Positions 6,300-53,886 of a DNA stretch of 64,000 bases are shown here, piece after piece (position 1 is the first letter of the stretch; each line of letters begins with the position of its first letter). The notes under the pieces were generated by a model. That model searched no databases and was not told the origin of the DNA. It saw only the letters and a program-made list of their open reading frames with translations. A program made the position numbers and the translations under genes. The stretch lies in NCBI RefSeq assembly GCF_056712565.1, contig NZ_CM160072.1, one strand, 5' to 3'.

Positions 6300-6502
6300 T
6301 GTCATTCAAAATCGGCATACCTTCCTTTAATGTATTTATTTTCCCAATAAATATATGAGATTTACCTCATAATTACTTCCTAAAGTGTAATATTTTATTT
6401 TTTAATATATACGCCTACAATTTCCTGGAGTAAATAAATAACAATTAACAAGCATAATATTGCCATTGATAAAATAGCATGCCATAAAAGGACTTTTCAG
6501 GG

Positions 6503-7681
6503 ATGAGTAATATTGTTTATCTGACAGTAACGGGAGAACAACAAGGAAGCATCTCCGCAGGTTGTGGGACTACTGAATCTATAGGTAATCGCTGGCAGAG
6601 CGGTCATGAGGATGAAATATTTACATTCTCACTCTTAAATAGTATTACTAATACGGGGCTTGGTTCACAGTTCCATGGTATAACATTTTGTAAATTAATT
6701 GATAAAAGCACTCCATTATTTATTAATTCCATTAACAATAATGAACAATTATTTATGGAATTTGACTTCTATCGAATAAATAGATTTGGTAGATGGGAAA
6801 AGTATTATTATATACAACTAAGAGGCGCTTTTTTATCGGCTATTCATCACCAGATCTTTGAAAACCAACTGGATACAGAAACAATAACTGTTAGTTATGA
6901 ATTTATCCTCTGCCAACATCTTATCACTAACACCGAGTTCAGCTATTTGGCACTCCCTGAAAATTATAACCGCTTGTTTTTACCAAATTCAAAAAACAAA
7001 ACAAATAATGGTTTAAAAACGTTAAACAGCGAAGCTGTTGGCAGGCTACTTGCTGCTGGTGGCGTATACAATGGGAACATTGAAGGATTCAGAGATACTG
7101 CGGAAAAACTGGGTGGAGATGCAATCAAAGGCTATGATCAAATACTAAATGAAAAAACAGCGGGCATAGCGATAGCAACAGCATCTATTCTTTTAACAAA
7201 GCGTTCTAATGTTGATACATATACAGAAATAAATAGTTACTTAGGCAAACTTAGAGGCCAACAAAAACTTCTTGATAGTATAGACATAATAGAAATAATA
7301 TAAATTAAGAGACCTTCAAAAGACTTAGCTAACTTACGAAAGGAGTTTAATAAAAATGTAAGAAAAAATTTTCTTATCAAACTTGCAAAAACCTCCGAAG
7401 CATCTGGAAGATTCAACGCCGAAGACCTTTTAAGAATGAGAAAGGGCAATGTTCCTCTAAATTATAATGTACACCATAAACTATCTCTAGATGATGGTGG
7501 TACTAATGATTTGGAAAATTTAGTATTAATCGAAAACGAACCATATCATAAGGTTTTTACTAACATGCAATCACGAATAGCTAAGGGAATATTAGTGGGT
7601 GAAAGCAAAATCACTCCCTGGGCCATTCCATCTGGCTCAATTTATCCTCCCATGAAAAATATTATGGAACCCACAAAATGA
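6503..7681 (+). pseudogene. yhhZ: yhhZ-like Hcp-domain polymorphic toxin with C-terminal HNH nuclease domain, interrupted by an in-frame TAA at 7301-7303
   Basis: ORFs 6503-7303 and 7436-7681 share one reading frame; codons after the TAA continue open (IKRPSKDLANLRKEF...) into an HNH motif (HHKLSLDDGGTNDLENLVLIENEPYHKVF). 266+1+125 codons equals the 392-aa K-12 YhhZ length as I recall it. Confidence 0.65.
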
Positions 7682-8172: not shown

Positions 8173-8621
8173 TAATAAAAAGGTAACCAAAATCATTGTA
8201 AACCATGCCATCTTTTTAGAGTTTACCAGCAGTAAATTTCTTGATCGAAATTTATCAATACAAGCTATAGAAAAACTTACAACGGAACTACACTCCTTAA
8301 GTGAGATGGACCGAAGACATGTAGTCGCTATTTAAACTGAAATAGCTAATGGCGATGATGATCTTAGTGACATGTTGATTTGGTTAGAATTTTACCCGAA
8401 TCATAAGATTCTGATATCTTAAATGAGCAAATCCGGTTCGACGTTCTGGAAAATAAATCACAAAATATTAGCAGATACTTATTTTGTGACTATACCTTAT
8501 CCGATGAACTCTTTTCAAAACCAGCATTTAATAATATCTTTGACGAAGATGAACGCGTCTTTGCTCAATGTATAACGCAGGAATAATAATATAACGCTAA
8601 ACAATAATATTTATTATAATT

Positions 8622-21834: not shown

Positions 21835-22218
21835 ATGAAGCTGACCATCATTCGATTAGAAAACTTTAGCGACCAGGACCGGATTGACCTGCAAAAGATC
21901 TGGCCGGAGTATTCCCCTTCCTCTTTACAGGTTGACGATAACCACCGTATCTACGCCGCGCGTTTTAACGAGCGCCTTCTCGCGGCCGTGCGGGTAACCT
22001 TAAGCGGCACCGAGGGGGCACTGGATTCCCTGCGTGTGAGGGAAGTCACCCGCCGTCGCGGTGTGGGGCAATATCTGCTGGAAGAGGTTTTGCGTAACAA
22101 TCCTGGCGTTTCATGTTGGTGGATGGCGGATGCTGGCGTGGAAGATCGCGGCGTGATGACGGCGTTTATGCGAGCACTGGGATTTACGGCACAACAGGGT
22201 GGCTGGGAGAAGCGTTAA
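21835..22218 (+). CDS. panM: PanD maturation factor, GNAT-like
   Basis: 127 aa; translation matches PanM/YhhK; sits between livK and livJ. Confidence 0.85.
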   Translation: MKLTIIRLENFSDQDRIDLQKIWPEYSPSSLQVDDNHRIYAARFNERLLAAVRVTLSGTEGALDSLRVREVTRRRGVGQYLLEEVLRNNPGVSCWWMADAGVEDRGVMTAFMRALGFTAQQGGWEKR

Positions 22219-22246
22219 TCGTCAAGTTTGATTTCACAAGTGATAT

Positions 22247-22348
<102 letters not shown>

Positions 22349-22405
22349 GAAGCAACGTACTCGATATTAGCAATTTGGCGGCAACCCAAAGTTGCCGATT
22401 AATGA

Positions 22406-23509
22406 TTACTTCGCATCAGTCGCCGTGCCGTTGGCGTGCCAGTCAAACACACCGAACTCAAAGCCTTTCAGATCGCCTTTCTCATCCCAGGTCAGCGGCC
22501 CCATCACCGTATCAACCGAGTTCGCTTTCAGGTATTTAGCGATCTCCGCCGGATCGTCAGACTGATTCAGGCCCGCTTGCAAAGATTGCAGCGCGGCGTA
22601 GGTGGTCCAGACGAACGCGCCGCTTGGGTCCTGTTTTTTCGCTTTGATCGCGTCAACAATCGGTTTGTTCGCCGGAACCTGATCGTAGTTCTTCGGCTTG
22701 GTCACCAGCAGCCCTTCCGCTGATTCGCCCGCAATGTTAGACAGCGAGACGTTAGCCACGCCTTCTGGCCCCATAAACTGAGTTTTCAGCCCTGCCGCGC
22801 GTGCCTGACGCAGGATTTGCCCCATTTCCGGGTGATAACCGCCGTAGTAAACGAAATCGATATTCTCTTTCTTCAAACGCGCCACCAGGGTAGAGAAATC
22901 TTTTTCCCCGGCGGTGATGCCATCAAAGAACACCACGTTAGCATTGCCTTTCTTCAGGCCGTCCTGCACTGCACGCGCCAGACCTTCGCCGTACTGCTGT
23001 TTGTCGTGAACGATAGCAATGCGTTGCGGTTTCACTTTCTCAAGTATATATTTCGCCGCCGTCGGCCCCTGGTCTGAGTCCAGGCCGGTGGTGCGCAGGA
23101 TCAGCTGATAGCCACGGGCGGTCAGCTCTGGTGCGGTTGCCGCTGGGGTGATCATTAAAATGCCTTCGTCTTCGTAGATGTCAGACGCTGGCTGCGTTGA
23201 TGAAGAGCAGAGGTGACCAATCACGTATTTAATGCCGTCGTTAACGACTTTGTTCGCCACCGCAACCGCCTGTTTCGGGTCACAGGCATCGTCATATTTT
23301 ACGATTTGCAGTTTGTTGCCTTTGATACCACCTTTAGCATTGATATCCGCAACCGCCTGCTCTGCGCCAGTAAACTCCTGGTCACCGTACTGCGCCACCG
23401 GACCGGACATTGCGCCTACGACGGCGACTTTAATATCTTCTGCCAGAGCCATATTGCTGAATGCCAGCGCGATACATCCTGCCAGTAACGCTTTACCCTT
23501 TATGTTCAT
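22406..23509 (-). CDS. livJ: Leu/Ile/Val periplasmic binding protein
   Basis: Native start [11 protein letters not shown] gives 367 aa with signal peptide; matches LivJ. Confidence 0.9.
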
Positions 23510-24443
23510 CCTGAGAATCCCCACTCTTCTGGTTATTACGTGTGTTGTGATGTTGTTGTGCAGCACTTTATTTCGTTTTATACGTAGCTACCCGTGCTTT
23601 AGCAGCATACTCTGCTAAAACATACCCCATTTTTATGATATTGGAATAGCTATTTTGACAGTTTATTAACAATCTGCGGGACAGTTGGCTTTTTCTACAA
23701 GAAGAAATTCACCTAAACAAGCGTTGGGGTAAAAATAGCCTGGTACATCAAATGATGATGCCATCACGCATACCTCAAACCTGAGCACGATAAAGCTTAC
23801 CGAGCAAAATACATCACAATTCCCGTAATCAAATAAACAAAGTAATGGCAATAAACATTGCTGATAACTAGCCTGTACTCAGTTTTGGAATGGACCTCCC
23901 TTGAGCATTTTTCCTGATATGTTGTCTGGTTTCAAATATTCCTCATACCCCCCAAATGTTGCTCTATAGCATTTAATCTATTAGTAGAAACGGCTATAGC
24001 TCAATTGTGTTTTTCCAGATTGAGCATATCCCTTTTCCCATCCTGAAATTTAAAACAAGCATTAAATATATATAATTAGCATAAAGTCTATCTTCTTTAA
24101 GCGTAATACGTCCTCTTTTTATATATAATTCTTATAAATCATAAGTGTTGATTTATTTACTCGACGTATTTTTGGTTCACTGGAATATATTCATTAAATA
24201 AATATAAAAGTATTCAATTATCATTAATTATGATGAACAGCACATCATAAGCCCTGTTTTTTATTACAAACAATTTATTAGCAATTTTAGCTAATGCTAT
24301 CAACTGTGATCTTGCTAACATTATCGCCAAATAAAAACAATATAATCAAAGGCCAAAGGTTACCTTGCTGAAAGCTAAAAACATTCATGTGTTGAATATT
24401 ATTTATTATCTATCCTCTGTACATATTAAAAGGAATTTATCAT

Positions 24444-24845
24444 TTGAACCAGTTCAATATTATAATTCTGACACACGGTGAGGCAGGGAATGCTTTACTC
24501 GCCAGTAGCGAAATGATTGTAGGTAAAACACCGCATACTACAGCTATTTCTCTGATGCCGGGAATGTCACCTGAAGCACTTATGCAACAAGTAAAAACCA
24601 TACTCAATCCTGATGTAGAAACAATCATATTTACGGATATTTATGGCGGCACACCTTCAAATATCGCCTACCTTCTTTCACGAGAATTTCCCATTCGCTG
24701 CATCAGCGGTGTCAATCTGGCAATGTTAATTGAAGCCAACATGTTACAGGATTCTGACGAAGAACAGTCCTTTGATGAATATATTCAGCATATACATGAT
24801 GCTGGTAAAGAGATGATTCAAACTTATTGTTTTAATAAAGGATGA
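24444..24845 (+). CDS. PTS mannose/sorbose-family EIIA component (accessory)
   Basis: 133 aa; aligns with the ManX IIA domain (IIILTHGEAGNALL vs IVIGTHGWAAEQLL; TDIYGGTPSN vs VDTWGGSPFN; GVNLAMLIE). TTG start with an AAGGAA RBS. Confidence 0.8.
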   Translation: MNQFNIIILTHGEAGNALLASSEMIVGKTPHTTAISLMPGMSPEALMQQVKTILNPDVETIIFTDIYGGTPSNIAYLLSREFPIRCISGVNLAMLIEANMLQDSDEEQSFDEYIQHIHDAGKEMIQTYCFNKG

Positions 24846-24851
24846 TAAACT

Positions 24852-25337
24852 ATGAGTATAGTACATGCCCGTATTGATTACCGTTTAATTCATGGACAAG
24901 TCATAACAAAATGGCTAAAAAGGAGTGATGCAAATAAAATAATTGTTATTGATGATCCCTTGTCACGCGATCCTTTCCTGGCTGAAGTCTATAAGATGGC
25001 AGCGCCAAGTGGTGTTGAAGTCATAATGACCTCCATTGAAGATACGTTACAACGCTGGAACAGCAATAGTTTCTATGAAGGTAAATTACTAATTCTTTTC
25101 AAATCGATCGATTCTGCATTAAAAACTATACAAGGTGGTTTGATGTTAGAGGAATTACAAGTCGGTGGTGTTGAAAATACTCCGGGAAGAAAAATTGTCT
25201 TTAACCAAATATCACTCAACCACGAAGATGCCGACAAACTTCAAATCATCGAAGATAAGAATATCAAAGTTTATTTCCAAACTATTCCTGAAGAAGATCC
25301 TGCCAGCCTACAAAAAATCAAAAATAAGTTACCTTAA
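24852..25337 (+). CDS. PTS mannose/sorbose-family EIIB component
   Basis: 161 aa; conserved phospho-His motif ARIDYRLIHGQV as in ManX-IIB and LevE. Confidence 0.8.
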   Translation: MSIVHARIDYRLIHGQVITKWLKRSDANKIIVIDDPLSRDPFLAEVYKMAAPSGVEVIMTSIEDTLQRWNSNSFYEGKLLILFKSIDSALKTIQGGLMLEELQVGGVENTPGRKIVFNQISLNHEDADKLQIIEDKNIKVYFQTIPEEDPASLQKIKNKLP

Positions 25338-25353
25338 TTAAGGAGAGGAGCTT

Positions 25354-26100
25354 ATGTCTATTTTTACAGCAGCAATGATTGCCCTGGTATATTGGATATC
25401 CCAAGCAAAAGTATGGTACGGCTTTTCTATTATGCGTATGCCATTATCGATAGCACCTATTATGGGACTCATCTTTAATGATATGCCAACTGCTTTATCT
25501 GTTGGGGCCACCTTACAGATGATCTATATCGGGAGTATTGCCCCGGGAGGAAATCCTCCTGCAGATGAAGGTCTAGCCTCGTGTATAGCAATTCCAATTG
25601 CACTTACCGCAGGTATTAAACCAGAAATTGCTATCTCTTTGGCTATTCCACTGGGATTGCTCGGCGTTGTTCTGGAAAACGTACGTAAAACACTGAATAC
25701 CACATTTATCCACATGGCTGATCGCTACGCAGAAAAAGGTGATATAAAAGGCATCCAACGCGCAGCCACAATATATCCTCTCCTGTTAGCCTTTCCGATG
25801 CGTTTTGTACCGGTATTCATCGCCTGCCTGTATGGCCCGGATGCCATTGCCTCTTTTGTAAACCTGCTTCCCGCCTGGTCGACGAATGGCCTGGCAATTG
25901 CCGGTAATATTCTGCCTGCACTCGGTTTTGCGATAACCATAATTGTTATCGGTAAGAAACAATACATCCCTCTGTTCATTATTGGCTTTTTCCTCGTGAC
26001 CTATTCAGGCTTGAATACCATTGGCATCTCTATTTTTGGACTCTGTGCCGTCCTCTTATATATGCAGTCACAAAATACAAAAGGAACTAAAAATGGATAA
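25354..26100 (+). CDS. PTS mannose/sorbose-family EIIC membrane component
   Basis: 248-aa polytopic membrane ORF between IIB and IID; size and position typical of Man-family IIC. Confidence 0.75.
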   Translation: MSIFTAAMIALVYWISQAKVWYGFSIMRMPLSIAPIMGLIFNDMPTALSVGATLQMIYIGSIAPGGNPPADEGLASCIAIPIALTAGIKPEIAISLAIPLGLLGVVLENVRKTLNTTFIHMADRYAEKGDIKGIQRAATIYPLLLAFPMRFVPVFIACLYGPDAIASFVNLLPAWSTNGLAIAGNILPALGFAITIIVIGKKQYIPLFIIGFFLVTYSGLNTIGISIFGLCAVLLYMQSQNTKGTKNG

Positions 26101-26947
26101 TATAATTGAGTCAGGATACTCAGAATCCTCCCCTATTACGAAAAGAGACGTTCAGATTGTTTGGCTAAAATGGCACGCGTTCTCTGAAACATCATTGAAC
26201 TTTGAACGTTTACAAGCACTGGCATTTTGCAATGCAATGACAGGCGTATTGGCGAAGCTATACCCAGATGAAAAAGATCTCGCCAAAGCCTTACAGCGCC
26301 ATTTAACCATGTTCAACACACAGGCTAACTGGGGCTCGGTTATCGCTGGTATTAGTATTGCACTGGAGGAAAAAGCCGCCCAGGAATCAGAAGAACAACG
26401 TGAATCAACAACACAACTTGTTACGGGTTTAAAAACTGGTCTTATGGGGCCTGTATCGGGTATTGGTGACACGTTAGACTTTGGTACATTGCGTCCCATT
26501 GTTATTGGTGTCTGTATCCCGTTTGTTATTCAGGGATATGTTATTGCTGCACTTCTCCCCCTGATTTACCAGGTTAGTTATATGTTCTTCGCCAGTCGAT
26601 TTGCTCTTAATATCGGCTATAAAAAAGGGAAAGAGTCAATTCTGGAAATCTTGCATTCCGGGAGCATACATCGAATTATCGAAGGTGCTGGAATGTTCGG
26701 GCTGTTGATGATGGGGGCGCTTTCAGCAACGTATGTAAAAATTAAGACGCCATTGCATATTACAACCGGCGGTGGCAATACCATTGTCTTACAGGATATG
26801 CTAGATAAAATTGTCCCTAACATGTTGCCACTTATTGCCGTGTTGGGTATTTATTTTTACATACAAAAATGTGGCCCTCATTTCTTACGTATTCTGGTCA
26901 CTATTCTTGTTTTGAGTCTTGCATTTTCTTTCTTTGGCCTTTTATAA
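26093..26947 (+). CDS. PTS mannose/sorbose-family EIID membrane component
   Basis: ATG at 26093 with RBS AAGGAA, overlapping the IIC stop by 8 bp; 284 aa with hydrophilic N-terminus then TM segments. The ORF track start at 26021 is an extension. Confidence 0.75.
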   Translation: MDNIIESGYSESSPITKRDVQIVWLKWHAFSETSLNFERLQALAFCNAMTGVLAKLYPDEKDLAKALQRHLTMFNTQANWGSVIAGISIALEEKAAQESEEQRESTTQLVTGLKTGLMGPVSGIGDTLDFGTLRPIVIGVCIPFVIQGYVIAALLPLIYQVSYMFFASRFALNIGYKKGKESILEILHSGSIHRIIEGAGMFGLLMMGALSATYVKIKTPLHITTGGGNTIVLQDMLDKIVPNMLPLIAVLGIYFYIQKCGPHFLRILVTILVLSLAFSFFGLL

Positions 26948-26948
26948 A

Positions 26949-27869
26949 ATGAAAAAGATAATTATCACTCCCCGGCCTTTTGTGGGTAAAGGCAAGGTCT
27001 ATATTGATAAGTTAAAATCCGCAGGTTATCAAGTTGAATGTAATAACAGTGGAGGTCGATATAGCAAGGAAGAACTCATCGAGAAAATTAAAGACGCGAA
27101 TGCCATTATCACCGGAAACGATCCTCTGAGCAGAGAAGTTATTGATCAGGCAAAAAACCTGAAGGTTATTTCAAAATATGGCGTAGGGTTAGATAACATA
27201 GATGTCGATTACGCAAATAGTAAAGACATCGTGGTACATAAAGCTCTTAATGCTAACTCTATTTCTGTTGCAGAAATGACCATTCTGATGATGCTCTCCA
27301 GTTCCCGAAAATATGTTGAAATCGAGAGTCAGGCAAGAAATGGTAAGGACATCAGGCTTGTCGGGTATGAGCTATATCAAAAAAATCTGGGATTAATTGG
27401 ACTTGGTGCAATTGGTCAACATGTTGCTCATATTGCTCATTCTATGGGAATGACGATTACTGCTCATGATCCTCATATTGATAAAAGCAAGGTTCCATCC
27501 TATATAGAACTTAAATCACCTGATGAAATATATCAGTACAGCGATGTAATTTCTCTGCATTTACCTTTACTGGACAGTACTCGCAATATAATTAACGACT
27601 CTGTATTTGAGAAAATGAAATCTTCGGCTATTTTAATCAATACAGCCAGGGGTGGATTGGTCGATGAGAAAAGTTTATATACCGCACTTAGCAATCAGAA
27701 AATTGCTTTTGCCAGTGAAGATATTGAACTGAGAGAACGTTCAAAAGAACTCACCGAACTTAAAAATTATTCTATTACCCCTCATGCCGCTTCATTTACC
27801 GATGAGGCCGACCATAACACAATGCAAATTTCTATTAAAAACGTATTACAGGAACTGGAGAAAGAGTAA
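26949..27869 (+). CDS. D-isomer-specific 2-hydroxyacid dehydrogenase family, NAD-dependent
   Basis: 306 aa; Rossmann GLIGLGAIGQ and catalytic-region motifs (INTARGGLVDE, PHAA); start overlaps the IID stop region. Confidence 0.75.
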   Translation: MKKIIITPRPFVGKGKVYIDKLKSAGYQVECNNSGGRYSKEELIEKIKDANAIITGNDPLSREVIDQAKNLKVISKYGVGLDNIDVDYANSKDIVVHKALNANSISVAEMTILMMLSSSRKYVEIESQARNGKDIRLVGYELYQKNLGLIGLGAIGQHVAHIAHSMGMTITAHDPHIDKSKVPSYIELKSPDEIYQYSDVISLHLPLLDSTRNIINDSVFEKMKSSAILINTARGGLVDEKSLYTALSNQKIAFASEDIELRERSKELTELKNYSITPHAASFTDEADHNTMQISIKNVLQELEKE

Positions 27870-28753
27870 TGAAAGAGCTCAAAGGGATTATTACCGCAAT
27901 GGTAACGCCTTTCGATGAAACGGAAAAAATGGATATCACTGCGGCGAAAAAAATGGCGCGCTGGTTAGTAGATAATGGTGTTCATGGTTTATTCATTTGC
28001 GGAACTAATGGTGAATTCCATTTGCTTTCCGATGACGAAAAAGTTGAGTTAACAAAAGCCGTCGTTGAAGAGGTCGGTAATGAAGTTACCATTTGTGCAG
28101 GTGCTGGGTGCTGCAGCACAAAACAAACCATCGAATTGACTAAACGGTTAGTTGATGCGGGTGCCGATTATATTTCTGTTGTCACGCCGTACTATCTGGT
28201 ACCAAATCAGGAAGATTTATACCGTCACTATTACGATATTGCCTTTAGCACAACAGCCCCCATCATTCTCTATAACCTGCCGGGCCAGACAGGATTAAGC
28301 ATCGAATACGAAACGGCAAATCGTTTAGCCGATATCAAAAATATCGTAGCGATAAAAGACAGTAGCGGTAAATTCGAAGTCCAGAAACAGTATCTGGAAA
28401 TCGCTAAACATAAAAACTTTAAGGTATTAAACGGCTCTGACTCGTTAATGCTGGATGCATTTAAAGAAGGTTCTGTGGCTGCTGTCGCTGCAACGTCGAA
28501 TGTTCTGCCTACGATTGAAGTCGATTTATATAATTACTTCATGGCCGGTGAAATGGAGAAGGCGCAGGAAGAGCGTAATAAAATGGATGCACTGCGCATG
28601 ACGATCAAGAAAATGACCGCGCCTGCAGTAATGAAGGAAGCATTAAACCTGATGGGTGTGAAGGCAGGTATTACACGTAGACCAATTCATATGCCAAACG
28701 ACGCGATCGTTGAAGACATCAAGGAAATGTTGAAAGGCTATAATTTCCTGTAA
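27869..28753 (+). CDS. DapA/NanA-family class I aldolase or lyase (Schiff-base lysine)
   Basis: 294 aa; motifs GTNGEF, YNLPGQTG and AIKDSSG (Schiff-base Lys) as in dihydrodipicolinate synthase and N-acetylneuraminate lyase; TAATG overlap with the dehydrogenase. Confidence 0.75.
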   Translation: MKELKGIITAMVTPFDETEKMDITAAKKMARWLVDNGVHGLFICGTNGEFHLLSDDEKVELTKAVVEEVGNEVTICAGAGCCSTKQTIELTKRLVDAGADYISVVTPYYLVPNQEDLYRHYYDIAFSTTAPIILYNLPGQTGLSIEYETANRLADIKNIVAIKDSSGKFEVQKQYLEIAKHKNFKVLNGSDSLMLDAFKEGSVAAVAATSNVLPTIEVDLYNYFMAGEMEKAQEERNKMDALRMTIKKMTAPAVMKEALNLMGVKAGITRRPIHMPNDAIVEDIKEMLKGYNFL

Positions 28754-28796
28754 AGGACAAATGCCGGATGTATCTCTTGTCCTACAAGATAGCGTA

Positions 28797-28826
28797 AACA
28801 AAAACCCCCGGACTCAAATCCAGGGG
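28797..28826 (-). terminator. Rho-independent terminator of rpoH; also closes the convergent PTS island
   Basis: Minus-strand RNA cccctgga-loop-tccggggg followed by UUUUU, 30-60 nt after the rpoH stop. Confidence 0.6.
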
Positions 28827-28856
28827 TTATCTGTGGCAACTTAACGCGCTGCGCGA

Positions 28857-29711
28857 TTACGCTTCAATAGCAGCGCGAAGTTTTTTCATCGCGTTCTTTT
28901 CCAGCTGGCGCACACGCTCAGCGGAAACACCGTAACGGTCAGCCAGTTCCTGCAACGTGGACTTATTGTCTTCGTCCAGCCAGCGCGCGCGGATGATATC
29001 CTGGCTACGCTCGTCCAGACCTTGCATCGCGTCGGTCAGACGGTTTGCTGCCTGCTCTTCCCAGTTATCATCTTCAATGCCGTCGGCAAAGTTAGATGAT
29101 TTATCCTGCAGATAGAGCACCGGAGCCATCGGCTGGCTGTCGGAATCGTCGTCGGAAGACAGGTCAAAGGTCATGTCCTGTGCTGCCATACGTGATTCCA
29201 TCTCACGTACGTCTTTACTGGTTACGCCCAGTTCACGGGCCACCATTTCGACTTCATCCTGGTTAAACCAGCCCAGACGCTGCTTGGTTTTACGCAGGTT
29301 AAAGAACAGTTTGCGCTGCGCTTTGGTGGTCGCAACTTTGACGATACGCCAGTTACGCAGAACGTATTCGTGGATCTCTGCTTTGATCCAGTGGACGGCG
29401 AAGGAGACCAGGCGCACACCCACTTCCGGGTTAAAACGGCGCACTGCTTTCATCAGGCCGATGTTACCTTCCTGAATCAAATCCGCCTGTGGCAGGCCAT
29501 AGCCCGCATAATTACGAGCAATATGAACAACAAACCGCAGGTGAGACAGGATCAGCGTTTTAGCTGCTTCCAGATCGCCATGGTAATGCAGCTTTTCAGC
29601 CAGCGCCCGCTCCTCGTCAGCCGACAACATCGGCCACGCGTTAGCTGCCCGGATGTAGGAATCCAGGTTGCCAACTGGGGCTAAAGCTAAACTTTGCATT
29701 TTGTCAGTCAT
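28857..29711 (-). CDS. rpoH: RNA polymerase sigma-32 (heat-shock sigma factor)
   Basis: 284 aa; translation matches RpoH, including the RpoH box region. Confidence 0.95.
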
Positions 29712-48285: not shown

Positions 48286-49032
48286 ATGAAATCATTGAGT
48301 AAGTCGTCACAAATACCGCTCTATCAACAAGCGGTGGAGTGGATAAGAGAAAGTATTTATACCGGGGATCTGGTGGAAGACGATCGCATTCCTTCGGAAT
48401 ACCAGATTATGGATATGCTGGAAGTGAGCCGGGGAACCGTTAAAAAAGCGGTCGCCCAACTGGTAAAAGAAGGCGTGTTGATACAGGTCCAGGGGAAGGG
48501 AACATTTGTCAAAAAAGAGAACGTGGCATATCCGTTAGGTGAAGGATTATTGTCATTCGCGGAATCGCTGGAAAGCCAGAAAATACATTTTACCACTGAA
48601 GTTATTACGTCACGGATTGAACCGGCTAATCGTTATGTGGCAGAGAAATTAAGAATAACGCCCGGTCAGGATATTCTTTACCTTGAGCGTTTACGTTCAA
48701 TTGGTGATGAAAAAGCGATGCTGATAGAGAACCGTATCAATATTGAGCTATGCCCCGGCATCGTGGAAATCGATTTTAATCAACACAATTTATTTCCAAC
48801 AATAGAAAGTTTGTCGCAAAGAAAAATTCGTTACTCGGAAAGTCGCTATGCCGCGCGATTAATTGGTAATGAACGCGGTCATTTTTTAGATATCAGTGAA
48901 GATGCACCCGTTTTGCATCTGGAGCAGTTAGTCTTTTTCTCCCGAGGATTACCCGTTGAGTTTGGCAACGTCTGGTTAAAAGGAAATAAATACTATCTTG
49001 GCACCGTGCTGCAACGGCGGGAAGTGAGTTAA
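48286..49032 (+). CDS. GntR/HutC-family transcriptional regulator (accessory island)
   Basis: About 248 aa; N-terminal winged HTH (YQIMDMLEVSRGTVKKAVAQLVKEGVLIQVQGKGTFV) and C-terminal UTRA-like domain. The ORF track offers a GTG at 48277. Confidence 0.75.
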   Translation: MKSLSKSSQIPLYQQAVEWIRESIYTGDLVEDDRIPSEYQIMDMLEVSRGTVKKAVAQLVKEGVLIQVQGKGTFVKKENVAYPLGEGLLSFAESLESQKIHFTTEVITSRIEPANRYVAEKLRITPGQDILYLERLRSIGDEKAMLIENRINIELCPGIVEIDFNQHNLFPTIESLSQRKIRYSESRYAARLIGNERGHFLDISEDAPVLHLEQLVFFSRGLPVEFGNVWLKGNKYYLGTVLQRREVS

Positions 49033-49056
49033 GTACACTTTTTTAAGAGGAATAAA

Positions 49057-49530
49057 ATGCAAGGCATACAGTTTCAGGAAAATTTTATTCAACGACTTCC
49101 GGCAGGGTTAAGCGTTGAACAGATCATCCATCAGTTAGCGCAACCGTTGGTTACCGCCGAACTGGTGGTCCCTGATTTTGCCGATCATGTACTGGAACGT
49201 GAGGCGACGTACCCAACGGGACTGCCTACCGAACCACCGTGTGTCGCCATTCCGCACACGGACCATAAACATGTCAGGCACAATGCAATTGCCGTCGGTA
49301 TCCTGCCGGAACCGGTAGTGTTTGCCGATATGGGCGGCGACTCTGATCCCGTACCTGTCAGGGTGATTTTTTTGCTCGCCTTAGGCGAAAGTAATAAACA
49401 ATTAAATGCCCTGGGCTGGATTATGGAGATGATTCAGGATACGCCCTTTATGCGCGCCCTGCTTACGATGGAAACAACAGAAATACACACAGCAATCTTA
49501 AACAAAATGAAAGAACGAGGTGAAATATGA
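49057..49530 (+). CDS. PTS EIIA component, fructose/mannitol/galactitol/ascorbate-type (PTS_EIIA_2)
   Basis: 157 aa; size and position immediately before EIIB and EIIC fit a GatA/UlaC-like IIA. Confidence 0.65.
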   Translation: MQGIQFQENFIQRLPAGLSVEQIIHQLAQPLVTAELVVPDFADHVLEREATYPTGLPTEPPCVAIPHTDHKHVRHNAIAVGILPEPVVFADMGGDSDPVPVRVIFLLALGESNKQLNALGWIMEMIQDTPFMRALLTMETTEIHTAILNKMKERGEI

Positions 49531-49808
49531 GTCAAACCATTTTATTTGTCTGCGCCACGGGTATTGCCACATCCACGGCAGTAACAGAAAAAGTCATGGA
49601 ATATTGTAAAGAGCACGGTCTTAACGTCAATTATTCCCAAACCAACGTTGCCTCTTTACCTGGAAATACTGACGGCGTAGCACTGGTAGTCTCAACGACT
49701 AAAGTGCCTTATGAACTCGACGTCCCGGTGGTTAACGGCTTGCCGATTATTACCGGTATTGGCGAAGAGAAAGTACTGGCGCAAATTGTTTCGATCCTTA
49801 AAAAGTAA
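49527..49808 (+). CDS. PTS EIIB component, GatB/UlaB-like
   Basis: 93 aa; N-terminal phospho-cysteine motif ILFVCATGIATS (Cys about position 9); ATGA overlap with the IIA gene. Confidence 0.75.
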   Translation: MSQTILFVCATGIATSTAVTEKVMEYCKEHGLNVNYSQTNVASLPGNTDGVALVVSTTKVPYELDVPVVNGLPIITGIGEEKVLAQIVSILKK

Positions 49809-49884
49809 TTAATAATAATTAATTTCAACCCACTCCATCAGGCGCTAACGCGAGGTGCGCTCTCGCCTGAAAAAGAGGTTTATT

Positions 49885-51243
49885 ATGAACGATATCGCGC
49901 ATACCCTCTATAATATTGTGCAATATATATTGGGATTTGGTCCCACGGTAATGTTGCCGTTGGTGTTATTTATTCTTGCTCTCTTTTTTAAAGTAAAACC
50001 CGCTAAAGCCTTACGTTCGTCATTAACGGTCGGCATTGGTTTTGTCGGTATTTATGCCATTTTCGATATTCTTACCAGCAATGTCGGGCCAGCGGCCCAG
50101 GCGATGGTTGAACGCACCGGAATTAATTTACCGGTGGTGGATTTAGGCTGGCCGCCGCTTTCCGCTATTACATGGGGTTCGCCAATTGCCCCGTTTGTTA
50201 TTCCCCTGACTATTCTGATTAACGTGGCGATGCTGGCGTTAAATAAAACCCGCACCGTTGACGTAGATATGTGGAACTACTGGCATTTTGCCCTTGCCGG
50301 TACGCTGGTTTATTACAGCACCGGCAGCCTGTTCTTTGGTTTGCTGGCAGCGGCGATTGCTGCGGTGGTAGTACTTAAACTCGCCGACTGGTCTGCGCCA
50401 CTGGTACAAAAATACTTTGGCCTGGAAGGGATCTCTTTGCCGACGCTCTCTTCGGTGGTGTTCTTTCCGGTCGGTCTGTTGGTCGACAAAATCATCGACC
50501 ATATCCCCGGCCTCAATCGTATTCATATCGATCCGGAAACCGTACAGAAAAAGTTTGGCATATTCGGCGAACCGATGATGGTTGGTACTATTCTGGGCAT
50601 TCTGCTCGGCGTAATTGCCGGATACGATTTCAAAAAAGTCTTGCTGCTTGGCATCAGCATTGGCGGTGTGATGTTCATCCTGCCACGCATGGTTCGCATT
50701 CTGATGGAAGGTTTATTACCGCTGTCTGAAGCCATTAAAAAGTATCTCAATGCCAAATACCCTGACCGTGACGATCTCTATATCGGCCTGGATATCGCCG
50801 TTGCCGTAGGTAACCCGGCGATTATCTCCACCGCCCTGCTGCTGACGCCAATCTCGGTCTTTATCGCGTTTGTCCTTCCGGGTAATGAAGTCCTGCCGCT
50901 TGGGGACCTTGCCAACCTGGCGGTAATGGCGTCGATGATTGCTTTAGCCAGCCGTGGCAACATTTTCCGCACCGTTCTGGCGGCGATTCCGGTGATTATT
51001 GCCGATCTGTGGATTGCGACTAAAATCGCGCCGTTTATTACCGGAATGGCGAAAGACGTTAATTTCAAATTTGCCGAAGGCTCCAGCGGCCAGGTCTCCA
51101 GTTTCCTTGATGGCGGTAACCCGTTCCGCTTCTGGCTGCTGGAAATCTTCAACGGCAATCTCATCGCCATTGGTCTGGTGCCGGTTATCGCCCTGGTACT
51201 GTATGGTATTTTCCGAATGACGCGGAGCACGGTTTATGCCTGA
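49885..51243 (+). CDS. PTS EIIC permease, galactitol/ascorbate-type
   Basis: About 452-aa polytopic membrane protein; ATG at 49885 preceded by RBS AAGAGG. The ORF track start at 49855 is an extension. Confidence 0.75.
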   Translation: MNDIAHTLYNIVQYILGFGPTVMLPLVLFILALFFKVKPAKALRSSLTVGIGFVGIYAIFDILTSNVGPAAQAMVERTGINLPVVDLGWPPLSAITWGSPIAPFVIPLTILINVAMLALNKTRTVDVDMWNYWHFALAGTLVYYSTGSLFFGLLAAAIAAVVVLKLADWSAPLVQKYFGLEGISLPTLSSVVFFPVGLLVDKIIDHIPGLNRIHIDPETVQKKFGIFGEPMMVGTILGILLGVIAGYDFKKVLLLGISIGGVMFILPRMVRILMEGLLPLSEAIKKYLNAKYPDRDDLYIGLDIAVAVGNPAIISTALLLTPISVFIAFVLPGNEVLPLGDLANLAVMASMIALASRGNIFRTVLAAIPVIIADLWIATKIAPFITGMAKDVNFKFAEGSSGQVSSFLDGGNPFRFWLLEIFNGNLIAIGLVPVIALVLYGIFRMTRSTVYA

Positions 51244-52744
51244 TAACAGCGCAGCTATCGTTATCGATATTGGCACCACCAATTGCAAAGTCACCTGCTT
51301 TTCCTGCCTGGACGCAACGACGTTGGGCGCGCATAAATTCGTGACGGCAAAACAGATCTCCCCACAGGGCAATGTCGATTTCGATATCGACGCCCTCTGG
51401 CAGGAGGTCCGCCAGGCGATAGCGCAACTGAACGCCGCTTCGCCGCTGCCAGTCAGGCGGATCAGCATTGCCAGTTTTGGCGAGTCAGGGGTGTTTCTTG
51501 ACAAACATGGCGAGATTCTGACGCCAATGCTGGCATGGTATGACCGTCGCGGTGAAGAGTATCTGGCAACGCTTAGCGAGGCAGACAGTGCGGCACTTTA
51601 TGACATTTGCGGGTTACCACTGCACAGCAATTACTCTGCCTTCAAAATGCGTTGGTTGCTGGAGCATTATCCGCTGCGCAATCGTCGCGGCCTGCGCTGG
51701 CTACATGCACCGGAAGTGCTGCTCTGGCGGCTGACTGGCGAACAGCGAACGGATATCACCTTAGCCAGCCGTACACTGTGTCTGGACGTGCGCAAAGGCG
51801 AATGGTCAGCGAAAGCGGCGGCGTTGTTACACGTTCCCTGTTCAGCATTTGCGCCATTGTTGCAGCCAGGTGAGCACGCCGGATGGGTCAGTGAGTCGCT
51901 CTGCAAAACGCTTGGGTTCTCGCAATCGGTCAGCGTGACGCTGGCCGGACATGACCATATGGTGGGTGCGCGGGCGTTGCAGATGATGCCGGGCGATATC
52001 CTTAACTCGACGGGCACCACGGAAGGCATTCTGCAACTGGATACACAACCGACGCTGGATGAACAGGCCAAACGTGACAAGCTGGCAAACGGCTGTTACT
52101 CGCTTGCCAACCAGTTCACCCTGTTTGCTTCTCTGCCCGTGGGCGGTTTCGCGCTGGAGTGGCTGCGTAACACGTTCCGGCTAACCGATGAGGAGATCGC
52201 CGTGTCGCTCAATCGTGGGTATGCGGATTACCTGGCGGGGAACTGGTCGCTCGATGACATTCCCGTTTTTATTCCGCATCTTCGCGGTTCGGGTTCGCCC
52301 TATAAAAATCGCCATACCCGAGGATTATTTTATGGGCTTGGCGATACGTTAAATATCGATATGTTAATTGCCAGCGTCTCACTGGGATTAACCATGGAAT
52401 TTGCCAACTGCTTCGCCTGTTTTAATGTGCCCGGCACCAGCGCGTTAAAAGTGATAGGTCCGGCAACCCATAATCCCCTTTGGCTGCAATTAAAGGCGGA
52501 TATTTTACAGCGTCCGGTTGAAGCAATTGCATTTAACGAGGCGGTTTCTGTCGGAGCATTATTAACCGCCGCACCGGATATTCCACCGCCGCAAGTCACC
52601 ATAGCCCAACGTTTGTTACCGAATCGGGCGAGATACCATCAATTACAGCGTTATCAGCACAAATGGAAAAGCTGGTATCAGTTGAAATTACAGCAAGAAG
52701 GCGTGATGCCATTACATCATCGGGAGGAGCACTATGTTGAGTAA
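51236..52744 (+). CDS. FGGY-family carbohydrate kinase
   Basis: 502 aa; N-terminal FGGY motif AIVIDIGTTNCKV; 8-bp overlap with the IIC gene. Confidence 0.75.
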   Translation: MPDNSAAIVIDIGTTNCKVTCFSCLDATTLGAHKFVTAKQISPQGNVDFDIDALWQEVRQAIAQLNAASPLPVRRISIASFGESGVFLDKHGEILTPMLAWYDRRGEEYLATLSEADSAALYDICGLPLHSNYSAFKMRWLLEHYPLRNRRGLRWLHAPEVLLWRLTGEQRTDITLASRTLCLDVRKGEWSAKAAALLHVPCSAFAPLLQPGEHAGWVSESLCKTLGFSQSVSVTLAGHDHMVGARALQMMPGDILNSTGTTEGILQLDTQPTLDEQAKRDKLANGCYSLANQFTLFASLPVGGFALEWLRNTFRLTDEEIAVSLNRGYADYLAGNWSLDDIPVFIPHLRGSGSPYKNRHTRGLFYGLGDTLNIDMLIASVSLGLTMEFANCFACFNVPGTSALKVIGPATHNPLWLQLKADILQRPVEAIAFNEAVSVGALLTAAPDIPPPQVTIAQRLLPNRARYHQLQRYQHKWKSWYQLKLQQEGVMPLHHREEHYVE

Positions 52745-53003
52745 AACCGTGGAAGTCAGAAACAGTACTGGCCTGCATGCACGTCCGGCGGCCTGTCTGG
52801 CGAAAGCCGCCAAAAAATATAGCTGTAAAGTGACGCTGCACTATGAAGGTAATGATATTAATGCCACCAGCATGATGAATATTATGCGCGCCGGAATAAA
52901 AGGCGGAAAAACGGTGGAAATACGCTGCGAAGGTGATGATGAAAACGAGGCAATACAAACTCTCACTACCTTATTTCGCGACCGCTTCGGTGAAGCTGAA
53001 TAA
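52734..53003 (+). CDS. HPr-family phosphocarrier protein paralogue
   Basis: 89 aa; active-site motif GLHARPA (His-15 equivalent) and a Ser-46-like region (ATSMMNIM). Confidence 0.8.
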   Translation: MLSKTVEVRNSTGLHARPAACLAKAAKKYSCKVTLHYEGNDINATSMMNIMRAGIKGGKTVEIRCEGDDENEAIQTLTTLFRDRFGEAE

Positions 53004-53034
53004 TTAACTGATATTAAAAGATGAGGTTTTCAAT

Positions 53035-53886
53035 ATGCCATTAGTTAATGGACGGATACTGCTCGACCGCATTCAGGAAAAACGGGTATTAGCGGGCGCA
53101 TTTAATACCACCAATCTGGAGACAACGATTTCAATTTTAAACGCCATTGAGCGTTCAGGATTACCCAACTTCATTCAGATTGCGCCCACCAATGCACAAC
53201 TGTCGGGATACGATTACATTTATGAAATCGTGAAACGTCACGCTGATAAAATGGATGTTCCGGTCAGTCTTCATCTTGATCACGGGAAAACTCAGGAGGA
53301 TGTTAAACAGGCGGTGCGCGCGGGCTTTACCTCGGTCATGATTGACGGTGCCGCATTCTCTTTTGAAGAGAATATCGCTTTCACCCAGGAAGCTGTCGAT
53401 TTCTGTAAATCCTATGGCGTACCGGTTGAAGCGGAGCTGGGGGCGATTCTCGGCAAAGAAGACGATCACGTCAGCGAAGCCGATTGCAAAACGGAACCGG
53501 AAAAGGTGAAGACCTTTGTCGAACGCACCGGTTGCGACATGCTGGCAGTTTCTATTGGTAACGTTCATGGCCTGGACGATATACCGCGGATCGATATCCC
53601 CCTGCTGAAGCGCATTGCCGAAGTCAGCCCGGTGCCGCTGGTTATTCACGGCGGCTCCGGTATCGCCCCGGAGATATTACGCAGTTTCGTTAATTATCGC
53701 GTCGCTAAAGTGAATATCGCCAGCGATCTGCGCAAAGCGTTTATCACCGCAGTCGGCAAAGCGTATGTGAATAATCACAACGAGGCGAATCTGGCACGGG
53801 TGATGGCATCAGCAAAAAACGCCGTCGAGGAAGATGTGTATAGCAAAATCCTGATGATGAATGAGGGGCATCGGTTGGGTAAGTAA
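53035..53886 (+). CDS. Class II (metal-dependent) ketose-bisphosphate aldolase, GatY/KbaY/FbaA family
   Basis: 283 aa; motifs LHLDHG, VIHGGSG and overall resemblance to tagatose-1,6-bisphosphate aldolases. Confidence 0.8.
   Translation: MPLVNGRILLDRIQEKRVLAGAFNTTNLETTISILNAIERSGLPNFIQIAPTNAQLSGYDYIYEIVKRHADKMDVPVSLHLDHGKTQEDVKQAVRAGFTSVMIDGAAFSFEENIAFTQEAVDFCKSYGVPVEAELGAILGKEDDHVSEADCKTEPEKVKTFVERTGCDMLAVSIGNVHGLDDIPRIDIPLLKRIAEVSPVPLVIHGGSGIAPEILRSFVNYRVAKVNIASDLRKAFITAVGKAYVNNHNEANLARVMASAKNAVEEDVYSKILMMNEGHRLGK

Follow-up and report, generated by a model that had tools for sequence, protein, structure and literature searches.

The intergenic gap between livJ and an accessory PTS cassette in Escherichia coli is best described as essentially ordinary: it consists of the livJ control region, lineage-specific filler, and a compact CRP-type promoter of an uncharacterised accessory PTS operon. 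By comparing the gap with other E. coli genomes and with its counterparts in Escherichia albertii, Escherichia marmotae and Citrobacter—assisted by scans for promoters, terminators, RNA families and protein domains—we consider it probable that the gap is a historical mosaic of livJ control region, orphan filler and conserved promoter module, and not one functional unit. The proposed promoter at its cassette end would be a new instance of a well-known regulatory layout; judging from the sequence and its alignment, we read the module as a class II CRP-dependent promoter with an unstructured leader of about 90 nt.

Extent, composition and coding content of the gap

Gene coordinates were taken from the RefSeq annotation of NZ_CP033092.2 (the E. 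coli ATCC 11775 chromosome), which is 100% identical to the window, that is, to the whole 64-kb stretch of DNA that was analysed. In the annotation of this identical record, livJ and the PTS operon are divergent, as a preliminary description of the window had stated, and the gap between livJ and PTS-IIA runs from 23510 to 24443 (934 bp). It had also been called the largest intergenic gap of the window, and it is, the runners-up being yhiM-yhiY (557 bp) and livK-panM (423 bp). Its left edge had been placed at 23567, for a length of about 880 bp, and has to be moved by 57 nt: that position was set by a GTG-extended ORF (22406-23566), whereas the annotated ATG of livJ lies at 23509, is conserved, and opens a conserved signal peptide (as seen by tblastn of the LivJ N-terminus and in the list of ORFs). 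The right edge stands, since IIA starts with the TTG at 24444, and both this TTG and its AAGGAA Shine-Dalgarno sequence are kept in all relatives. The features of the gap and its borders are as follows.

22406-23509, minus strand: livJ coding sequence, the left border of the gap (RefSeq annotation, tblastn, ORF list).
23510-23678, minus strand: core DNA with the livJ promoter and leader, matching E. coli Nissle at 100% and found in 5425 of 5426 genomes.
23540-23560, minus strand: C/A-rich stretch CACAACAACAUCACAACACAC in the livJ leader, read directly from the sequence.
23603-23617, unstranded: palindromic Lrp-consensus-like site CAGCATACTCTGCTA, conserved in K-12, E. albertii, E. marmotae and Citrobacter.
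23679-23709, unstranded: left junction of diverged core-like DNA (GGACAGTTGGCTTTTTCTACAAGAAGAAATT versus TGGGGATTGGCGTTTTGCCGGAGGGGAAATT in K-12), which would mark arrival with donor flanks.
23710-24044, unstranded: orphan segment of 335 bp, peculiar to the E. coli form of the cassette, with no homologue, ORF or structure, and bounded by imperfect direct repeats.
24045-24275, unstranded: very AT-rich spacer (about 25% GC), about 65% identical to the E. albertii and E. marmotae cassettes, with no strongly conserved block.
24278-24295, plus strand: conserved repeat TTAGCAATTTTAGCTAAT (TAGC..TTAG), 12 of 18 columns invariant in four lineages (binomial P 2.3e-3); candidate operator centred at about -67.
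24305-24320, plus strand: CRP-like site TGTGATCTTGCTAACA, centre 24312.5, agreeing with the CRP core at 9 of 10 positions, with 13 of 16 columns invariant (binomial P 4.8e-5).
24341-24346, plus strand: -10 hexamer TATAAT, recognised in the sequence and in the alignment.
24353-24443, plus strand: predicted 5' UTR (about 90 nt), showing little conservation and no structure, with the Shine-Dalgarno sequence AAGGAA at 24430-24435.
24444-24845, plus strand: PTS EIIA (Man family), the first of six cassette genes, with a TTG start (RefSeq annotation).

The gap is indeed strongly AT-rich: its GC content is 32.8% (25.2% in 24001-24270), where the window as a whole has 51.0%. It had been said to hold no credible ORF, and this view is borne out: every frame of 23680-24290 carries 10-20 stops, a Pfam search in all frames of the gap region gave no match at E<=1, and no open frame with relatives was found that would point to a protein-coding gene or a pseudogene. 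The 61-codon ORF on the minus strand (23666-23851) was rightly discounted, for it has no RBS and no homologue, its search against 1.84 billion representative proteins returning only the ORF itself and repetitive Cys-rich noise; relative to one diverged E. coli copy it shows two nonsynonymous and no synonymous changes. P0011 and P0012 were considered as diverged homologues of this 61-aa ORF and rejected, being the same ORF read with a shifted frame; of the two contigs concerned, the one that was checked (L017, which carries P0011) differs from the window by single-base gaps only, which we take to be assembly errors.

Mosaic structure and junctions

The gap falls into four parts: core DNA (23510-23678), a junction (23679-23709), the orphan (23710-24044), and cassette upstream DNA (24045-24443). 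Identity to Nissle is 100% up to 23678 and then decays (GGACAGTTGGCTTTTT versus TGGGGATTGGCGTTTT), with residual homology ending after the GAAATT at 23709. Core E. coli identity thus stops at 23678 and the remainder of the gap occurs in only 175 of the 5426 complete genomes, in agreement with the earlier proposal that the region is a junction of acquired DNA. Beyond the cassette, at the right junction, the rpoH terminator is kept but is only 87% identical, with indels; in K-12, TG1 and Nissle, the distance from livJ to the rpoH 3' end is 270 bp. Because diverged core-like sequence is present at both junctions, import would have proceeded by homologous recombination from a diverged donor and not by site-specific insertion, and arrival of the cassette together with diverged donor flanks is the most likely history that the sequences suggest.

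The junction DNA is always chromosomal and single-copy in the 175 of 5426 complete E. coli genomes that carry it, with no annotation beneath it, and 173 of the copies are at least 99% identical. When the copy of L1PEag1 is set against the ST95-type copies, 12 differences (11 substitutions and one 1-bp insertion) fall in 23694-24211 and none in 24212-24396. No further copy of the island part of the gap (749 bp, 23695-24443) turned up in E. coli genomes, nor did it match any plasmid, and the orphan (23700-24050) gave no match in phages and only chance matches in the rest of the window. A mobile element (IS or MITE) was considered and rejected, as the DNA occupies one place per genome in the 175 genomes, occurs on no plasmid or phage, and lacks both the multiple copies and any reported terminal inverted repeats of such elements.

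In the relatives (E. albertii, E. marmotae and Citrobacter) the gap is shorter, measuring 522, 543 and 529 bp. Positions 1-150 and 536-934 of the E. coli gap align to E. marmotae and E. albertii, and positions 151-535 do not; of the approximately 385 bp of E. coli DNA missing in the relatives, about 50 bp is still K-12-like core and the other 335 bp is the orphan (23710-24044). Since the short forms lack core sequence (about 55 bp) as well, it is more parsimonious to assume a deletion across the junction in a short-form ancestor than an E. coli insertion. The orphan would therefore most likely be leftover spacer that other lineages lost in a junction-spanning deletion, and it has no detectable function. 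It is flanked by imperfect direct repeats, GAAATTCACCTAAACAAGCGTT (23704-23725) and GAAATTTAAAACAAGCATT (24045-24063), whose alignment score is attained in 5% of pairs of windows drawn at random from the region (P about 0.05) and is hence marginal.

The livJ side

The preliminary description had held that both the livJ promoter and the island promoter must lie in the gap, and this is upheld. The livJ promoter must lie within 23510-23678, given that in K-12 livJ and rpoH are just 270 bp apart, with nothing else upstream but the rpoH terminator. The first 169 bp upstream of livJ, including the palindrome and the C/A-rich leader, are the same as in other B2 strains and show about 90% identity to K-12; the difference from the K-12 livJ region begins beyond about -170 from the ATG, where cassette-derived AT-rich DNA stands in place of the rpoH terminator region. 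In one strain, an IS1 is found about 148 bp upstream of livJ. From this strain and the short-form relatives, it follows that the livJ spacer can be rearranged at distances of more than about 140 bp from the ATG.

Two elements of the core region correspond to known regulation of livJ. The gene is a GcvB R1 target (PMC3536696), and CACAACAACAUCACAACACAC at 23540-23560 is likely to be its target element. Lrp occupies the livJ start-site region in vivo (PMC10127797), and would bind at the candidate site CAGCATACTCTGCTA (23603-23617), which lies inside the inverted repeat TGCTTTAGCAG/CTGCTAAAACA (23595-23622).

The PTS cassette and its relatives

The cassette between livJ and rpoH is 5.1 kb long, ends at 28753, and comprises six genes, encoding Man-family PTS EIIA, EIIB, EIIC and EIID, a 2-hydroxyacid dehydrogenase, and a DHDPS/DapA-family enzyme. 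The scores of the four PTS proteins all fall short of the NCBIfam equivalog cut-offs. No gene for a regulator, an antiterminator or an enhancer-binding protein was found in the cassette, nor was one for an enhancer-binding protein found beside it. Literature searches on the cassette and the proteins it encodes, and on transcripts mapped in UTI89/S88-type strains, returned nothing usable.

Carriers among the complete E. coli genomes include UTI89, UM146 and APEC O1:K1:H7 strains, which we take to belong to the ST95 complex. The identical livJ/rpoH site holds the same cassette in E. albertii, in E. marmotae-like contigs and in Citrobacter, with EIIA identities of 82%, 77% and 70%, respectively. 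As the same site is occupied in E. albertii, E. marmotae and Citrobacter, the cassette probably spreads or persists by flank recombination, not as a mobile element. The scan of a genome collection gave one locus and that of metagenomes gave five. A more distant arrangement is seen in a metagenome-assembled genome (MAG) of a Firmicute, in which the gene order is IIA-IIB-IIC-IID-DHDPS as far as the contig runs, without the dehydrogenase and without a regulator upstream.

A proposed compact promoter module upstream of the PTS operon

Conservation was examined in an alignment of four lineages from two genera (E. coli, E. albertii, E. marmotae and Citrobacter). Invariant columns make up 99 of 294 (34%) and are clustered, with peaks of the phylogenetic footprint at 24276-24295, 24301-24320, 24335-24352 and the RBS. 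The only block conserved between Escherichia and Citrobacter is 24276-24352, in which 42 of 77 columns are invariant against a background of 26% (binomial P 1.4e-7). Within it, the -10 area (24338-24352) has 10 of 15 invariant columns (binomial P 6.0e-3), and further downstream the Shine-Dalgarno sequence with the start codon (24424-24443) has 11 of 20 (binomial P 2.9e-2). The stretch between the module and the RBS (24353-24423) is the least conserved part, with 11 of 71 columns invariant.

We propose that the PTS operon is driven by this compact module, located about 90-170 bp upstream of the start codon. Its CRP-like site reads TGTGA-N6-TAACA, close to the consensus TGTGA-N6-TCACA. Matches with at most one mismatch number 3 in the window against 1.7 expected; the site alone is not rarer than chance, and so the case for CRP rests on conservation and geometry. 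The spacing from the CRP-like site to the -10 hexamer is exactly 20 nt in all lineages, the hexamer being TATAAA in E. albertii and TATATA in Citrobacter. The transcription start of the operon is predicted at about 24353-24354, and the centre of the CRP-like site (24312.5), which lies 28.5 bp upstream of 24341, would then be at about -40.5 to -41.5. CRP would accordingly bind some 41 bp upstream of the predicted start, replacing the -35 element, with TATAAT as the -10. A generic two-hexamer scan missed this promoter, as expected for class II, because it has no -35 and a predicted CRP site in its place; what the scan did pick out was a closer consensus match at 24049-24076. Searches of the literature and of available data for transcripts or start sites at the livJ/PTS locus found none.

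The promoters galP1 and melAB are class II CRP-dependent sigma-70 promoters of sugar-catabolic operons. The PTS module resembles class II CRP promoters in having a good -10, no -35, and a CRP-like 16-mer that would overlap the -35 position, centred some 41 bp before the predicted start, and it would likewise drive an operon for sugar uptake and catabolism. It differs from them in the extra conserved repeat at about -67, which suggests a co-regulator that is not encoded locally. This repeat probably binds a second, unlinked regulator, for which Lrp is one candidate; as the cassette contains no regulator gene, such a regulator must be encoded elsewhere. DeoR, GntR, NagC/Mlc and IHF were also considered as binders of the repeat, and in a by-eye comparison with consensus sequences none of them fitted. 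A Cra-like half-site, GCTGAAAGC at 24368-24376, was dropped since it is not conserved in relatives.

Lrp and H-NS

The E. coli Lrp consensus is YAGHAWATTWTDCTR (quoted in PMC5554404). Both TAGCAATTTTAGCTA (24279-24293), at the PTS repeat, and CAGCATACTCTGCTA, at livJ, match it at 13 of 15 positions, and one such match is expected by chance in the AT-rich part (P = 0.43-0.48). Lrp at the conserved PTS repeat is consequently a candidate, to be taken as a lead and not as a finding, as the match is at chance level.

Silencing of the gap by H-NS is plausible from composition alone. Like H-NS-bound xenogeneic DNA, which is similarly AT-rich and accessory, the gap has 25-39% GC against a background of 51% and borders an accessory cassette that about 3% of the complete genomes carry. 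It differs in two respects: the high-affinity H-NS motif TCGATAAATT is not enriched in the gap, where a single match with two mismatches was found, and the cassette is syntenic across Escherichia and Citrobacter and not a recent insertion of a mobile element. The AT-rich DNA between the two promoters would probably be bound by nucleoid proteins such as H-NS as a passive consequence of its composition. A more active role, in which this DNA couples both promoters (by Lrp bridging 23603-23617 and 24279-24293, or by H-NS nucleating across 23710-24275) or the orphan yields a lineage-specific transcript, seems to us quite unlikely. If Lrp/H-NS coupling were true, an acquired sugar PTS would come under amino-acid (feast/famine) control, and livJ regulation would be altered in the ST95-type lineage.

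Alternative readings of the gap

The preliminary description had proposed that the gap could contain a long structured leader or host an sRNA, and neither proposal found support on closer analysis. A scan of 22000-26000 with the Rfam 15 covariance models (E<=10) gave only chance matches to eukaryotic snoRNAs in the gap (E = 8.5-9.5); outside the gap, a match to naRNA4 was noted at 22316-22371. The predicted leader of about 90 nt folds worse than its shuffles (z = +1.82) and its consensus structure amounts to -0.62 kcal/mol (5 pairs, at the RBS only, with no covariation), in keeping with its low conservation; the orphan has z-scores of -0.02 and -0.13 on its two strands. A terminator scan of both strands of the gap found no terminator-like site, and a generic promoter scan of the region found 4 promoter-like sites against 6.0 +/- 2.1 in shuffles. 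These results bear directly on the idea that the PTS operon has a long, structured 5' leader of the riboswitch or antiterminator kind that takes up the entire region and starts at a distal promoter, for example TTTAAA-16-TATAAT at 24049-24076. This plus-strand sequence does match 10 of 12 positions of the sigma-70 consensus, could give a leader of about 360 nt in E. coli, and is separated from the operon by no terminator. Neither E. albertii nor E. marmotae retains it, however, the region has no more promoter-like sites than its shuffles, and RNA-family matches, excess folding and a consensus structure are all lacking; moreover, the relatives manage without about 385 bp of the gap DNA, and the cassette encodes no antiterminator, all of which makes such a leader unlikely. 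Still less probable is an independent sRNA or small protein specific to the ST95-type lineage and located, for example, in the 335-bp orphan. The orphan is lineage-specific and single-copy, and its C/A-rich stretch at 23805-23831 is faintly like the livJ/livK leader elements, but this likeness (in inverted orientation) is at chance level (E = 3.2-8.7), and the absence of terminators on either strand, of Rfam matches and of excess folding speaks against an sRNA. Against a small protein stand the features of the 61-codon ORF described above (no RBS, no homologue, nonsynonymous changes only), and the identity of P0011 and P0012 with that ORF in a shifted frame.

Another possibility is that the orphan and the AT-rich spacer are the remains of a decayed gene, such as a cassette regulator or an integrase, lost after acquisition. 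The GC content of the orphan (38.7% over 23701-24000) is higher than that of the neighbouring spacer (25%), and the cassette has no regulator; on the other side, the numerous stops in every frame, the lack of any Pfam match, the failure of the DNA to match any plasmid, phage or other E. coli sequence, and a longest ORF with no protein relative all weigh against it, as does the fact that relatives, including the Firmicute MAG, have no cassette gene immediately upstream of IIA. We therefore regard a decayed gene as improbable. Several Man-family PTS operons use sigma-54 promoters with LevR/DgaR-type activators, the Salmonella dga and gfr operons among them, and this is the sole precedent for placing the present operon under a -24/-12 promoter. 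The PTS cassette shares with these operons the PTS family and the succession of transporter genes followed by catabolic enzymes, but has neither a -24/-12 element facing the operon nor an enhancer-binding protein gene in or beside it. The preliminary description had reported only a mis-spaced sigma-54 candidate, and a properly spaced scan agreed, finding no good GG-N10-GC match to TGGCACG-N4-TTGCW: the best plus-strand candidate reaches 6 of 12 (23725-23740), away from the operon, and nothing in the gap exceeds 7 of 12. The GG...TTGC at 24351-24368, which could be cited in favour, has a GG-to-GC spacing of 14 or 7 nt where 10 would be required, and the relatives do not retain it. A sigma-54 promoter is accordingly exceedingly unlikely, and we retain the CRP-type module as the probable promoter of the PTS operon.

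Conclusions

With the mosaic reading of the gap, the attractive idea of a long structured leader or an sRNA falls away, which is of modest importance, and a concrete promoter model takes its place, with a CRP site near -41, a conserved site for a co-regulator near -67, and a leader of some 90 nt. The operon is confined to about 3% of complete E. coli genomes, including extraintestinal pathogens of the UTI89, UM146 and APEC O1:K1:H7 type, and work on its substrate or its regulation can focus on 24276-24352.

Distribution of the cassette

The cassette occupies the same position between livJ and rpoH in E. coli, E. albertii, E. marmotae and Citrobacter, and at this site it is carried by 175 of the 5426 E. 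coli genomes. A related gene arrangement (IIA-IID-DHDPS) is found in an Erysipelotrichaceae MAG, and none of the PTS subunits of the cassette reaches the NCBIfam equivalog cut-offs. In the list below, L numbers denote loci of other genomes, each in its own coordinates.

Features of the window and compared loci
Window 24444-28753; also in L004, L006, L007, L012-L016 and L020: cassette of six genes (Man-PTS, dehydrogenase, DapA-like)
L004 5425-6225, L005 3763-4563, L018 557-1357: ataRT pair or matching ORFs in the panM-livJ spacer
Window 48286-53886: second accessory PTS island, flanked by nikR and yhhJ (GntR-family regulator; galactitol-family IIA, IIB and IIC; FGGY kinase; HPr-like protein; class II aldolase)
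Window 6502-7680: pseudogene of tssD (type VI secretion tube protein), with an internal stop, adjoining yrhA
Window ~8266-8421: small pseudogene

Variation on either side of livJ

The panM-livJ spacer is a second variable spot, because its gene content differs among the genomes compared: the E. coli strains L1PEag1 and LD91-1 carry the ataRT toxin-antitoxin pair there, the window lacks it, E. albertii has two unannotated ORFs matching the pair in size and position, and Citrobacter has two different genes, one with a WapI domain. Between panM and the livJ 3' end of the window, an Rfam match to the REP-derived naRNA4 (22316-22371, both strands) scores 40.4 bits, below the gathering score of 59.5, and is probably a REP element.

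In the livJ-rpoH spacer of E. coli strain 23AR0922, an IS1 lies ~148 bp upstream of livJ (L019 2774-3471); insertions are tolerated in this spacer near the position of the short-form cassette junction, that of E. albertii, E. marmotae and Citrobacter. Within the predicted 5' UTR of the PTS genes, L1PEag1 has lost one 7-bp TATTATT repeat unit (window 24397-24403), a deletion compatible with slippage in an unconstrained leader.

The rpoH-side junction

Beside the cassette, the rpoH terminator and 3' flank (window 28796-28857) show 87% identity, with indels, to K-12 and Nissle (GTGGCAACTTAACGCGCTGCGCG versus GCTTAATAGCGGAA), and this divergence suggests that the cassette entered by homologous recombination, with the flanks of its donor included.
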